Shown here: positions 13,962 through 21,243 of the stretch, in pieces
Position numbering within the stretch: position 1 is the first letter of the stretch
Layout of the letters: the number at the start of each line of letters is the position of its first letter
Origin: an uncultured Dehalococcoidaceae bacterium
GTDB taxonomy: Bacteria; Chloroflexota; Dehalococcoidia; Dehalococcoidales; RBG-16-60-22
Direction of reading: 5' to 3'
DNA: 64,000 nt
Assembly (NCBI GenBank): GCA_964462865.1
Contig: CAYWZO010000002.1
Coordinates: forward strand, 820-64,819
The notes under the pieces: model-generated
Database searches by the model: none
Seen by the model: only the letters and a program-made list of their open reading frames with translations
What the model was told of the DNA's origin: nothing
Program-made: the position numbers and the translations under genes

Positions 13962-15203
13962 TTACCGTCCTTCCTTGGTGGTGATATTATCACCCGTCAC
14001 CGTTTCCGGCATGTTCTCCGCCGCGGTATATAGTTCGAGCCGGCCCAGACTCAAAAAGGCCGGGTCATATATCGACAGACGGTAGTGTTTGAAGTCCGCT
14101 TCGAGATTAAGAGAAAAACTGACCCAATTATCGGTCAGGCTGTCCCGTTCAAGCTCCAGAGCAGCGAGCACCTGCCAGTCTTCCCCGTTGGCACTGGCTT
14201 CCAAGAAGGCCGTCGGCCCGTTCCAGAGCTGTCCGGTCAGCCCCGCCCGGGGTAAAATACGTAAAACCTGGACAGACGCCGGTTCCGGCAGTGAAAAGGC
14301 CACCCGGGCGGGCACTTCCTGGCGAGGCGTTTTCAGGTGCCAGAAGCCGCTGGTGCCCGCTTGAATAAGAACACGCCCGTCCATACCTTCCTGTAAAGCG
14401 CTGCTGACCTGTATTGTCGCGGGATCAATCACCAGCTTTTTCAGACCGACAATACTGTCAACCCCCGCGACGCCGGGCACCGACAGGGGAGCTTCCGGCA
14501 GCCTGATATTCTGCCCCTTTAGCGGCGGCGTGGCTGCCACGGTAGGAATGGCCGGCACCGCGGGACCGCTCCCCCTTAGCTGATACAGCTCCAGCCGGGC
14601 GATGGAGACAAAGTCCATATCTTCAATATATAGGCGGTAATGCTCGCGGGCTTCCGGCACCAGCACCAGGAAATCGAGCCAGACGTCGCCCGGCGGCCAG
14701 GGGACGATGCCCAGCGAGGCCGCGGACTCCCAGTCCCGCCCATCATCGCTGACCTGCAGCAACGCCTTGTAGCCGCGCCACATCAGGTGGCCATTTCCCC
14801 GGCGCGGGAGCAACCGCAGCAGGGCCACCGGCCGCGGTTGGTCCAGGGTTACCGCCACCCAGTCGACCTGGCTGCCCCGCTTGGGGACCCGGACATGCCA
14901 GAACCCATCCACCCCGGGCCGCAACAGCGCCGCCTGGTCCATCCCCGGCTGAAAAACGCTGCTGACCTCTATCCGTTCCGCCTGTAAGGGTATCTTTTCA
15001 TAGGGCGACAGGTCTATCCCGGTCACGCCCAGGACCGGCGCCACTCTGGCCGGCAGGTCATTTATCAGGGAGATGGTTGCTGTCTGGCTGCCATTTTTAT
15101 CAGCGCCGCAGCCTGATAGCAACGCTACCCCCGTTAACGCGAGGGCTATCAGAGCGCTGCACCGGGGCCAGAATCGATTGTTTAGTTTGTGTATATTTTT
15201 CAT
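13962..15203 (-). CDS. Lipoprotein with two tandem discoidin (F5/8 type C)-like domains
   Basis: Lipobox LLSGC. Each half carries GFWH(V/L)(R/K)xP, W(V/A)xV(T/A)L, LR(L/I)LPR, S(D/A)(D/N)GxDW, HYRL and ARLELY. Confidence 0.8.
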   Translation of the reverse strand: MKNIHKLNNRFWPRCSALIALALTGVALLSGCGADKNGSQTATISLINDLPARVAPVLGVTGIDLSPYEKIPLQAERIEVSSVFQPGMDQAALLRPGVDGFWHVRVPKRGSQVDWVAVTLDQPRPVALLRLLPRRGNGHLMWRGYKALLQVSDDGRDWESAASLGIVPWPPGDVWLDFLVLVPEAREHYRLYIEDMDFVSIARLELYQLRGSGPAVPAIPTVAATPPLKGQNIRLPEAPLSVPGVAGVDSIVGLKKLVIDPATIQVSSALQEGMDGRVLIQAGTSGFWHLKTPRQEVPARVAFSLPEPASVQVLRILPRAGLTGQLWNGPTAFLEASANGEDWQVLAALELERDSLTDNWVSFSLNLEADFKHYRLSIYDPAFLSLGRLELYTAAENMPETVTGDNITTKEGR

Positions 15204-15210
15204 GCCATCT

Positions 15211-18587: not shown

Positions 18588-21243
18588 GGGTACAAAGCTC
18601 CAATCGGGCGAAGGAGTAAAAGCTCATATCGCTGATGGTCAGCCGGTAGAAGCGGTGAGTCTCCGGCTCCGGCAGGAGGAATGATATCCAGTCTTCCGTT
18701 AATGCGGCCCGTTTCACCGCGAGAGTCGCCAGCGGCTTCCATGTCTCCCCGTCATCGCTGGACTCCAGGAGGGCTTTCGTCCCGTCCCACATATTTTTGG
18801 TTACACCGGAACGCGGCAGTATTCGCACCATGGCGACGGCACGCGCCTCACCAAGGTCCACGGATAGCCAGGCGGGGTTTTCTTGACGCGGGGTCTTCAG
18901 GTGCCAGAAGCCTTCAGTCCCGGGCTTGACCAGATTATCTTTCCCCTGGGTCGGGTGGTTGACCGAGCTGACCTCGATCTGCCCGGCCAGCAGCGGCAGG
19001 GCTACATAGCCACCGTCATCAAAACCCTGGACGCCCTTGACGACCGGGCCGACGGGCCCGGTCGTCAACCGCGGCAATGACGAATCAACCGTCTCCGAAG
19101 GCACTTCGGTCATGGCCAGCCTGCCCAGCGAAAAAAACGTCATATCGTGAACTTCCAGGCGGTAGTACCGGTAGGCGGCACTGCTGAACACCGGAAAAGT
19201 AATCCAGCCGTCGGCCAGGTAATCGCGGTCAATACCCAGCACGCCCAGGGGGCGCCAGGCGGCGCCGTCGTGGCTTGCCTGGAGCACCGCCCGGTTGCCG
19301 TCCCACATCTGCTCGGCATGGCCGGTACGCGGCCGGAGACGCAGCTCGGCGATGGCGGCCGCCCGGGGAAGTGATATGGTTATCCAGGCGGGGTTTTCCT
19401 CACGCGGGGTCTTCAGGTGCCAGAAGCCATCGGTGCCCCCCTGCACGAGAGCACCGGCCGGATTACGCGGGTCGATGGTGCTGGAGACTGCCAGCATCGA
19501 GGCATCCAGCTCAACGGAAGGGAACCGGCTTTCGCCGGTGCCCGCTTCTCCGAGTATCAATCGCGAAGTCCCCAGCGGGCCGGCGGAAATATCGACAATC
19601 AGGGGATACTGGTTTTCCGACCAGGCAATGATGGGATAATTGTCAGCCAGGTAACTCGCGAACTCCTGGAGGGTCTCCGCCGTGTCCGGCTGCACATGAT
19701 AGCTTCCGTAAAAGAAATAGCGTGGGTTGCTCACGCGCTGCCAGGCAGGGCTCTCACGGTTCACCGGGATAACGTAGGCCTGGGTGATATCCCGCTGTAT
19801 GAAAGCCTCGAAACTTATTTGCCCGATAGCGGGGGCGCGGGTAAAGTAGGCCACCTGGTGGGGCGTTATATTCGTCCAGAAGACCTCGCCCTGGAAATCG
19901 TTAAGTATCTTCATTTCAGGCGCGGCGAAATCGCGATTATAGGCACGTTCTTTGAACATATCGGGCCAGGTGCTGGCGACCGTCTGCCAGATGGTGACGG
20001 CGGCTACAACGGTGACCAGCAGCACCAGACTGCCGCGCACCGCCGGTATCCGTAACTTGCCTGCCGCGCTGAAAAATGAACGCAATGCGGCGATGCCTTC
20101 GCCGATGAAAAGGCCGCCGGTGACAGCCACCGGAACGGCGATGATGAAAGGCAAGGGATAGGCCGCCGCGGCCGCCGGCAGAACCAGGTAGAAGGACAGC
20201 GCGGCGAAGAAGAATGCGGCCAGCACACGTAAAGCTAGGTATCTGGACGTACCATGCCGGAAAACAGCCAGCGCGCCGAGCCCGACCAGCGGCAGCAGGA
20301 CGGCCACGATAAGCGGGGAAAACTGCGCCCAGATAGCCACAAACGGATTGCCGTTGTGGCCCACCGAGTGCACGCCCCAGAGTATCAGGTTGTTCTCCTG
20401 TGAGAAGGCGCGGAGAACCTCACGCGCCGGCTCGCCGAAGACACGGTTGCCGATAGAGGAAACAATGTCTTCCCAGGCGACGCCCGGACCGAGCACGGCG
20501 GCATTCTGGATAATGTGCACCAGCACCCCGCCGCAGGCGATACCGGCCAGCAACAATACGCGCCGGAGGGTGAAACCGGGAAGGCGGACTATCCAGAGAC
20601 CAACCAGCGTGACGATAAGGACGAGCATCTGGATATAATTCATCCACGATACGACCAGTACGCAAGCGGCAGCCAGCCACAGGAAACGGGGACGGTCACC
20701 GGAGCGGGAGAATGCCCACAACGCCAGGAAAAAGAGCCCCAGCCAGTAGGCATGCGTGGTGTGGTCCATCATAGGCAGGACATGGCGGGCATTGAGTGCC
20801 AGCAGGCCGACCGCGGCAATACCATGCCAGGGCGTAAACAGCCGCCAGAAGAAGGCCAGCATGGCCACCAGTCCGAGGATAAAAACGGCTATCATTATCA
20901 GGCGCACCTCGGGCAGGGTGTCCACTCCCGCCGAAATGAGACCCCCGATGATGATGATGGGCAGGGACGGCATGTGGGTGTAGTATACCGGCGGGGCGTC
21001 CGGGGAGAAGTCCAGGGAATGGTCGGTCAGCAGACCGCGCTCTAAGAAACCATGCACCACGAAATTGTACCCGCCCATGTAATCGAGGAAGGCCTCCTCC
21101 GGCGCAAAATCATCCACATGGGAAGAATCCCTGACCCAGAAAGTGAGGGCCATACCGGCAATGGCGGCAATGACGGCACCGGCCACGATAAAAGGCCAGA
21201 CCCTTTGCCGAAATCCCCTTGTTGTCCCCGCCGATGTCATCAT
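18580..21243 (-). CDS. Polytopic membrane protein (YYTH-motif family) with two C-terminal discoidin-like domains
   Basis: The N-terminal 430 aa are collinear with 15211-17409 (APEEAFLDYMGGYNF...DAPPVYYTHMPS). The C-terminus holds two copies of GFWHLKTPREENPAW...LR(L/I)(R/L)PR...S(H/D)DG..W.PL...YR(Y/F)YRL. Confidence 0.7.
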   Translation of the reverse strand: MMTSAGTTRGFRQRVWPFIVAGAVIAAIAGMALTFWVRDSSHVDDFAPEEAFLDYMGGYNFVVHGFLERGLLTDHSLDFSPDAPPVYYTHMPSLPIIIIGGLISAGVDTLPEVRLIMIAVFILGLVAMLAFFWRLFTPWHGIAAVGLLALNARHVLPMMDHTTHAYWLGLFFLALWAFSRSGDRPRFLWLAAACVLVVSWMNYIQMLVLIVTLVGLWIVRLPGFTLRRVLLLAGIACGGVLVHIIQNAAVLGPGVAWEDIVSSIGNRVFGEPAREVLRAFSQENNLILWGVHSVGHNGNPFVAIWAQFSPLIVAVLLPLVGLGALAVFRHGTSRYLALRVLAAFFFAALSFYLVLPAAAAAYPLPFIIAVPVAVTGGLFIGEGIAALRSFFSAAGKLRIPAVRGSLVLLVTVVAAVTIWQTVASTWPDMFKERAYNRDFAAPEMKILNDFQGEVFWTNITPHQVAYFTRAPAIGQISFEAFIQRDITQAYVIPVNRESPAWQRVSNPRYFFYGSYHVQPDTAETLQEFASYLADNYPIIAWSENQYPLIVDISAGPLGTSRLILGEAGTGESRFPSVELDASMLAVSSTIDPRNPAGALVQGGTDGFWHLKTPREENPAWITISLPRAAAIAELRLRPRTGHAEQMWDGNRAVLQASHDGAAWRPLGVLGIDRDYLADGWITFPVFSSAAYRYYRLEVHDMTFFSLGRLAMTEVPSETVDSSLPRLTTGPVGPVVKGVQGFDDGGYVALPLLAGQIEVSSVNHPTQGKDNLVKPGTEGFWHLKTPRQENPAWLSVDLGEARAVAMVRILPRSGVTKNMWDGTKALLESSDDGETWKPLATLAVKRAALTEDWISFLLPEPETHRFYRLTISDMSFYSFARLELCTHE

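Follow-up and report, generated by a model that had tools for sequence, protein, structure and literature searches.

Two neighbouring gene pairs for probable GT-C membrane enzymes and discoidin lipoproteins, in a conserved gene cluster of an uncultured Dehalococcoidaceae bacterium

What might two adjacent gene pairs, each encoding a polytopic membrane protein followed by a discoidin lipoprotein, contribute to the cell that carries them, and how did the two pairs arise? The pairs lie in a 64,000-nucleotide (nt) stretch of DNA from an uncultured Dehalococcoidaceae bacterium (assembly GCA_964462865.1, contig CAYWZO010000002.1, positions 820 to 64,819 of the forward strand), which was analysed as a whole and is hereafter called the window. 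An earlier note, made from the letters of the window, had read them as an enzyme with a soluble binding partner, duplicated as a module and since diverged. To our knowledge, little is understood of the envelopes of Dehalococcoidia and related uncultured bacteria, for which no machinery of glycan assembly has been defined. We favour, with a probability of roughly 55%, the reading that the membrane proteins are GT-C enzymes of a conserved operon that glycosylate a surface glycan from lipid-linked donors, with CBM32-like domains binding the acceptor both in cis and in trans. The genes at issue (M, membrane protein; L, lectin-like protein; aa, amino acids) are as follows.

18580-21243, minus strand: M1, 887 aa, a membrane core of GT-C fold with two discoidin/CBM32-like domains; predicted core aa 1-565 (19549-21243) with ~11 transmembrane (TM) helices and an extracytoplasmic alpha/beta domain; discoidin domains aa 571-715 (19099-19533) and aa 742-887 (18583-19020).
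17445-18587, minus strand: L1, 380 aa, a predicted lipoprotein with lipobox IIS-C32 and two discoidin domains, aa 63-207 (17967-18401) and aa 230-376 (17460-17900).
15211-17409, minus strand: M2, 732 aa, a paralogue of M1; core aa 1-580 (15670-17409) and a single, divergent discoidin domain, aa 587-726 (15232-15651), in which YWQ replaces FWH.
13962-15203, minus strand: L2, 413 aa, a predicted lipoprotein with lipobox LSG-C32 and two discoidin domains, d1 at aa 64-210 (14574-15014) and d2 at aa 250-395 (14019-14456).
21240-23132, minus strand: M0, 630 aa, a third, distant GT-C paralogue that has no discoidin domain.
23089-24489, minus strand: a Wzx-like flippase of the MOP family (Pfam Polysacc_synt, 33.4 bits against a cutoff of 28.2).

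M1 and M2 were collinear from the N-terminus and aligned over 726 aa at 38% identity (E = 3e-159), an alignment that contains all four motif strings quoted in the earlier note, and L1 and L2 aligned over 400 aa at 31% identity (E = 1e-53). The description of four open reading frames (ORFs) of matching architecture and order held throughout, as did the claim that each membrane gene is followed within 8 nt by a gene for a lipobox protein: the start of L1 overlaps the stop of M1 by 8 nt, and M2 and L2 are separated by a gap of 7 nt. Two membrane paralogues had been counted, but there are three, since M0 lies directly upstream of M1, its stop overlapping the M1 start by 4 nt, and had been overlooked. 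The relationship of M0 to the others was distant: a BLASTP match was confined to the N-terminus (E = 0.003), profile alignment of M0 with the family by hhalign gave a probability of 98.4% and E = 9e-15 over 232 columns, and M0 has a TN motif where the family has the conserved T457-N458 (judged by eye, in a region outside the hhalign alignment). The earlier note also lacked a third double-discoidin protein (L3) and the discoidin domain of a 1374-aa protein, both of which are listed below with the surrounding locus.

No Pfam or NCBIfam family matched the cores (~565 aa) of M0, M1 and M2, and the three proteins gave no match above threshold to Pfam PMT_2/ArnT, STT3, DUF2079, YfhO or Arabinose_trans; among 50 relatives scanned, there was a single weak PMT_2 match (E = 0.005) and a single DUF2079 match (E = 1e-4). 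Only eight relatives came out of a word-indexed search of 5.8 billion proteins; when 1.84 billion cluster representatives were searched exhaustively with a profile, 270 matched at E ≤ 1e-3, 44 of them at E ≤ 1e-30. Family members occurred in metagenome contigs with a G+C content of 31-64%. Patterns taken from the close M1/M2 subfamily, by which only close relatives are detectable, picked out 57 candidate stretches in 185,579 GTDB species-representative genomes, none of which encoded a relative. Judged by these searches, the M-core family is small and unannotated.

An AlphaFold (AF2) model of the core, built with an alignment of 126 family sequences, reached a mean predicted local distance difference test (pLDDT) score of 90.6 and a predicted TM-score (pTM) of 0.91; it replaced an earlier AF2 model from 9 close sequences (pLDDT 57), which was set aside. 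The model had ~11 TM helices and placed the C-terminus outside; the first external loop carried an insert of helices and a beta-hairpin, a second external loop was conserved, and the C-terminal part formed an alpha/beta domain. When it was compared with the PDB by Foldseek, the best 21 matches were all GT-C enzymes (E = 2e-6 to 1e-2), among them ArnT, STT3/oligosaccharyltransferase (OST), AglB, AftA, ALG12, ALG9, PimE, AftB and Pmt, with ArnT the best (E = 2e-6, TM-score ~0.5, 15% identity). The sequence profile of the core, searched against the PDB, gave noise and a weak hint of ArnT (E = 0.038). The distribution of charge was biased in the same orientation as the model, with three K/R and no D/E in the N-terminus (inside) and ten D/E against two K/R in the loop at residues 38-104 (outside).

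The usual catalytic position of GT-C enzymes is an acidic residue just after the first TM helix (TM1). In this family, residue E50 was Glu in 106 of the 126 members and Asp in 3 more, and position 49 was acidic in 83; the catalytic acidic residues after TM1 of the GT136 enzyme are D31/E34 (PMC11127046). Other conserved positions included Y88 and H90 (124 of 126 each), R267 (111), D74 (102) and, likewise family-wide, R114, H243 and N266. Because M1 and M2 both keep every family-conserved core residue, neither looks like a dead copy. Neither WWD nor W.D.G, as expected of a WWDXG motif, was found in the first 600 residues of M0, M1 or M2. Going by the model, the M proteins very probably have the fold of GT-C glycosyltransferases and function as enzymes, and they apparently belong to an undescribed GT-C sequence family, the comparison with GT136 being one of published architecture only. 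Domains attached to other members (F5_F8_type_C in 6 of 50, fn3 in 3 and CBM_AftD in 2) fit a general habit of attaching glycan-binding modules.

The discoidin domains matched the Pfam families PF00754/PF22633, with F5_F8_type_C scores above the gathering cutoff of 28.2 bits in M1 (67.6, in two stretches), L1 (51.9, in two stretches) and L2 (35.7). M2 scored 20.9 bits, which is under the cutoff, but reached E = 5e-31 with a local hidden Markov model (HMM) built from the four M1/L1 domain copies. This HMM found two domains in M1, one in M2 and two in each of L1 and L2 (E = 5e-31 to 9e-74, the top scores being those of the seed copies themselves), in agreement with the domain counts that had been proposed both for the lipobox proteins and for the two membrane proteins. 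Ten discoidin copies were found in the window, with the common signature VSS...GFWH...PR...W.G...YRYYRL...LELY, from which the M2 domain (YWQ for FWH) was the most divergent. By sequence profile, the closest solved relatives were Bacteroides chitobiase (2KD7/3GGL; E = 3e-8), domain 1 of galactose oxidase, NagH/NagJ and sialidase; coagulation factor VIII was a weak match (E = 0.0026), and the CBM32-type matches were better by 4-5 orders of magnitude. The downstream L proteins are thus lectin-like (CBM32/discoidin) and putative glycan binders, as judged from their sequences.

With the lipobox pattern [LVI][ASTVI][GAS]C, L1 (IISC32) and L2 (LSGC32) were both predicted to be lipoproteins, the motif following a hydrophobic N-terminus in each. 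The lipoboxes of orthologues read VSAC, LTGC and ASGC, and the L1 orthologue of contig L002 had no Cys and only a TM anchor. The proposal of an enzyme with a soluble partner was therefore borne out in part: the GT-C model and the lectin-like domains agree with it, but the partner is predicted to be tethered to the membrane, by a lipobox or TM anchor, rather than soluble. In L3, a non-canonical lipobox (GTSC) follows a signal-like N-terminus, the linkers are rich in Pro and Thr, and the two discoidin copies share 79% identity, a sign of recent duplication within the protein.

To place the two pairs in time, the locus was compared with contigs L001 (JGI 3300028837), L002 (ERR15087788), L089 (GCA_004196255.1), P0007 and L003/L004 (logan SRR22387915_29580). 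The order flippase-M0-M1-L1-M2-L2 was the same in L001, L002 and L089, except that the flippase gene of L002 stands downstream on the opposite strand. The flippase gene adjoined M genes in L001, L089, L003/L004 and the P0007 contig and was nearby in L002; L1 orthologues followed M1 in L001, L002, L089 and the P0007 contig, in all four of which an M0 orthologue lay directly upstream of M1. The P0007 contig read M0-M1-L1 and then flippase, with no M2-L2 at that locus. More divergent was the SRR22387915 locus (L004 8001-17532), where the order was M (812 aa), M0 (631 aa, between the two M genes), M (750 aa), L (530 aa, three discoidin domains) and L (445 aa, two). Its five L domains formed a clade of their own with 100% bootstrap, which points to lineage-specific amplification or concerted evolution. 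Overall, each of the six loci had as many adjacent L genes as M genes with a discoidin domain (two and two in five of them, one and one in the other).

The order kept in three other contigs indicates that the duplication is old. Identity between M1 and M2 within a genome (38-47%) was below that between orthologues of different genomes (46-59%), and the duplication was hence ancient and not local. Neighbour-joining bootstrap values supported the individual orthologous groups to differing degrees (M1, 100%; first domain of L1, 100%; second domain of L1, 82%; first domain of L2, 68%; M2 domain, 66%). In L001, L002 and L089, L2 is a single-discoidin lipoprotein of 199-212 aa, whose best alignment, in the two contigs compared, was with the C-terminal half of L1 (50% identity in L001, 41% in L002). 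The d1 domain of L2 in the window is the orthologue of this single domain, d2 is lineage-specific, and a single discoidin domain is the most likely ancestral state of L2. We conclude that the M-L pair was presumably duplicated before the sampled lineages diverged and that its copies went on to differ, presumably in the linkages or acceptor states that they serve. Duplication followed by divergence, as the earlier note had it, therefore stands, but as an ancient event conserved across contigs instead of a local one.

Around these genes, every gene from 28561 down to 13427 is co-directional and overlaps its neighbour or is separated from it by a very short gap, with the gene of the 1374-aa protein at the head of the block. 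Promoter and terminator scans gave counts no different from shuffled expectation, so that the operon structure is drawn from gene spacing only. Upstream on the same strand lie VTC and DUF4956 genes, L3, two B12-binding radical S-adenosylmethionine (SAM) enzymes, a DegT aminotransferase and a GT2 glycosyltransferase, together with thiamine pyrophosphate-dependent E1 subunits, short-chain dehydrogenase/reductase-type epimerases/dehydratases and an HldE-like kinase/nucleotidyltransferase. As a whole, this gene set points to a surface-glycan locus. The members that bear on the discussion below are as follows.

24437-28561, minus strand: a 1374-aa protein with an N-terminal membrane anchor, a discoidin domain (aa 919-1067, 25361-25807) of the same sub-type as the M and L copies, and a C-terminal beta-helix.
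30070-31281, minus strand: L3, 403 aa, a secreted double-discoidin protein.
34013-35425, minus strand: a B12-binding radical SAM enzyme, 50% identical to the enzyme beside the distant family member P0017.
37598-38353, minus strand: a GT2 glycosyltransferase, 251 aa (Pfam Glycos_transf_2), tentatively a candidate polyprenyl-phosphate sugar synthase.

In L089, L002 and the P0007 contig, the flippase gene has a gene for a homologue of the 1374-aa protein upstream of it; the homologues of L089 and L002 are larger (1694-1856 aa) and carry Laminin_G_3. Its gene adjoins the DUF4956 and VTC-domain genes (28576-29244 and 29290-30060, both minus strand), a trio that the P0007 contig shares. At the other end of the block, a 188-aa hydrophobic ORF (13427-13993, minus strand) that overlaps the end of L2 by 32 nt had no Pfam or NCBIfam match; in L001, L002 and L089 the place after L2 is taken by a radical SAM gene, and no such ORF was seen there. 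The glycan locus encodes other polytopic membrane proteins, of 706 aa (35473-37593, minus strand, starting 4 nt after the GT2 gene and without a Pfam or PDB match), of the DUF1616 type (11058-11939, plus strand) and of 491 aa (11948-13423, plus strand); the 491-aa and 706-aa proteins were considered as members of the M family but showed no detectable relationship to it. Searches for sequence relatives of the 706-aa and 1374-aa proteins in the PDB found none. The flanks of the window hold genes of the GlgE glycogen pathway (alpha-glucan phosphorylase, GlgE and a TreS-Mak fusion; 54875-62905, plus strand), with a GlgE closest to proteins of Dehalococcoidales/Dehalococcoidia metagenome-assembled genomes (62-76% identity), a single-protein indication that the host probably belongs to Dehalococcoidia, and, at 2353-10268 (plus strand), genes for a formate-dehydrogenase-like molybdoenzyme, a Nuo51/pyridine-nucleotide oxidoreductase fusion and a methylenetetrahydrofolate reductase with a DUF5981 partner.

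Genes for B12-binding radical SAM enzymes recurred immediately beside genes of the GT-C family, even beside the very distant, core-only members P0014 and P0017 (~22-25% identity to close homologues). In addition to the enzyme listed above, the window has one at 31298-32794 (minus strand), and others were found at L005 3616-4803, L086 306-1736, L001 11624-12466, L002 16687-18126 and L089 14010-15455. They fell into two subfamilies, and the products from L001, L002 and L005 were 51-79% identical to each other. This recurrence suggests some functional link to the GT-C family.

How the parts might work together can be proposed as follows. M0, M1 and M2 would work on the outer side of the cytoplasmic membrane, where the adjacent MOP protein, which is encoded directly upstream of M0 in a conserved arrangement, would flip a lipid-phosphate sugar carrier outward. 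The carrier would possibly be loaded by the GT2 enzyme, whose best PDB sequence matches were ArnC (E = 1.9e-7, residues 13-225) and DPMS (E = 8e-6). Like ArnT, the Aft/Emb enzymes and GT136, the M enzymes would then move the sugar from the carrier onto a glycan or glycoconjugate of the cell surface, with the conserved Glu just after TM1 acting in catalysis. Fused discoidin domains (two in M1, one in M2) may keep the acceptor glycan near the active site, and L1/L2, tethered to the same membrane face and probably translationally coupled to M1/M2, may add acceptor- or product-binding sites in trans, with one lectin protein for each discoidin-bearing enzyme. A bolder version, in which an unrecognised GT-C family forms a new extracytoplasmic assembly line, the tethered tandem lectins are obligate 1:1 partners that hand on the glycan from one enzyme to the next, and the whole is tied to B12-dependent radical SAM chemistry, seems to us unlikely.

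Several results weigh against the reading of conserved-operon GT-C enzymes that were duplicated together with their lectins. The GT2 protein is short, has no membrane segment detected in its Pfam/PDB matches and is encoded 16 kb away; STT3-type enzymes matched the core model as well as ArnT did; the L2 domains were no closer to the M2 domain than to those of M1, a preference of L1 for the M1 domains was likewise sought and not found, and there is thus no sequence signature of cognate M-L pairing; and trees of the M cores and of the discoidin copies left their deep nodes unsupported (bootstrap 29% for the first domain of L2 with the second of L1, and 16-32% for monophyly of the M2 core). The last point leaves room for an origin of the pairs other than one two-gene duplication, with M2 arising by gene duplication, L2 from a discoidin cassette that was excised or shuffled, and the order by selection for coupling. 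In line with such an origin, L2 joins L1 in the domain tree at that 29% only, d2 of the window L2 groups loosely with M-type domains, and the SRR22387915 locus combines the order M-M0-M-L-L with L domains that form their own clade at 100%. We nevertheless consider a piecemeal origin improbable, as four divergent loci have exactly the order M1-L1-M2-L2, another lacks M2 together with L2, and the best alignment of the single-domain L2 is with the second half of L1. Both genes are paralogous and stand in the same order, and it is this synteny, with the joint absence of M2 and L2 at the P0007 locus, that supports duplication as a unit, as had been claimed, whereas the phylogeny neither confirms nor refutes it.

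Other explanations concern what the enzymes do. Some oligosaccharyltransferase genes adjoin the genes of their targets, and M1/M2 might similarly be protein glycosyltransferases (PMT- or OST-like) that modify the adjacent L proteins as acceptors. STT3, AglB and Pmt are among the structural matches, L3 and the L proteins have linkers that contain Pro, Ser and Thr, and the M and L genes are tightly coupled; but the enzyme bears the same domains and similar linkers, no WWDXG motif and no Pfam PMT or STT3 match was found in the M proteins, and the domains shared by enzyme and neighbour are explained more simply by a shared ligand, which makes the L proteins quite improbable as substrates. Least probable of all is that the discoidin domains have the membrane or the lipid-linked donor as their ligand, concentrating donor instead of holding acceptor. 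The C domains of coagulation factors V/VIII do bind phospholipid, the F5/8 type C fold has lipid-binding members, factor VIII was itself a weak match (E = 0.0026) and every carrier of the domain here is membrane-tethered. The best matches, however, were CBM32 domains that bind carbohydrate, ahead of factor VIII by 4-5 orders of magnitude in E-value, and the CBMs of known GT-C enzymes bind acceptors (PMC11127046; PMC3044687). A stronger contender, although we still doubt it, is en bloc transfer of an oligosaccharide from a polyprenyl-diphosphate carrier by an OST- or ligase-like enzyme, to which a Wzx-like flippase would deliver repeat units. The conserved neighbour is indeed a Wzx-type Polysacc_synt flippase, and because STT3 and AglB score close to ArnT, the donor could be a diphosphate-linked oligosaccharide. 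Yet Pfam turned up no initiating phosphoglycosyltransferase in the ORFs that were scanned, the locus has an ArnC/DPMS-like GT2, the WWDXG motif was not found, and monophosphate-linked donors are also carried by MATE/MOP flippases (PMC11127046).

No principle of glycobiology changes; a GT-C enzyme with a carbohydrate-binding module is a known type of machinery. What the locus offers is a candidate new GT-C (CAZy-type) family, for which there is a confident model and a handful of residues likely to be catalytic. It also shows cleanly how a unit of enzyme and lectin was duplicated and kept across lineages, and, in an acceptor-binding module that occurs both fused and separate, it provides a natural case for testing the recent proposal of lipoproteins as trans CBMs of GT-C enzymes.

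The closest parallel is the GT136 system of the Citrobacter youngae O-antigen, in which ORF12 is a GT-C enzyme with a C-terminal CBM that binds the acceptor polysaccharide (O-antigen), accompanied by a polyprenyl-phosphoribose synthase and a MATE flippase (PMC11127046). Both systems have an 11-TM GT-C core with a helical periplasmic insert and acidic residues after TM1, a C-terminal beta-rich domain on the enzyme and a MOP/MATE-type flippase in the locus. Unlike GT136, the window has three GT-C paralogues, a CBM of discoidin/CBM32 type, an intercalated alpha/beta domain and separate lectin lipoproteins, and its donor synthase is weakly indicated. ArnT (GT83; PDB 5EZM/5F15), the best structural match, uses an undecaprenyl-phosphate sugar at the outer face, but it lacks both a CBM and a lectin partner and transfers to lipid A, and M0, M1 and M2 have no Pfam PMT_2 or ArnT match.

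The mycobacterial enzymes EmbA/B/C, AftD and AftA/AftB resemble the present set in having several GT-C paralogues per surface glycan, acceptor-binding CBMs in cis and lipoproteins proposed in trans (PMC3044687; bioRxiv 10.1101/2019.12.22.885152; PMC12802301). The CBMs of EmbC and AftD bind arabinan (cited in PMC11127046; PMC3044687), and the lipoproteins LpqZ and FecB have been proposed as CBM-like helpers of the CBM-less AftA and AftB (PMC12802301). AftA and AftB are also structural matches to the core, and two family members carry Pfam CBM_AftD. The mycobacterial proteins belong to other sequence families, however, and LpqZ/FecB have the fold of solute-binding proteins, which is not homologous to the CBM of the enzyme. 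In bacterial glycoside hydrolases and galactose oxidase, discoidin CBM32 domains accompany a different kind of enzyme, whereas here, with a sub-type signature of their own, they are joined to or paired with a biosynthetic membrane glycosyltransferase. None of these precedents matches the arrangement in the window, where the proposed trans partner shares homology with the CBM of the enzyme itself, has its gene directly downstream and was duplicated along with the enzyme.

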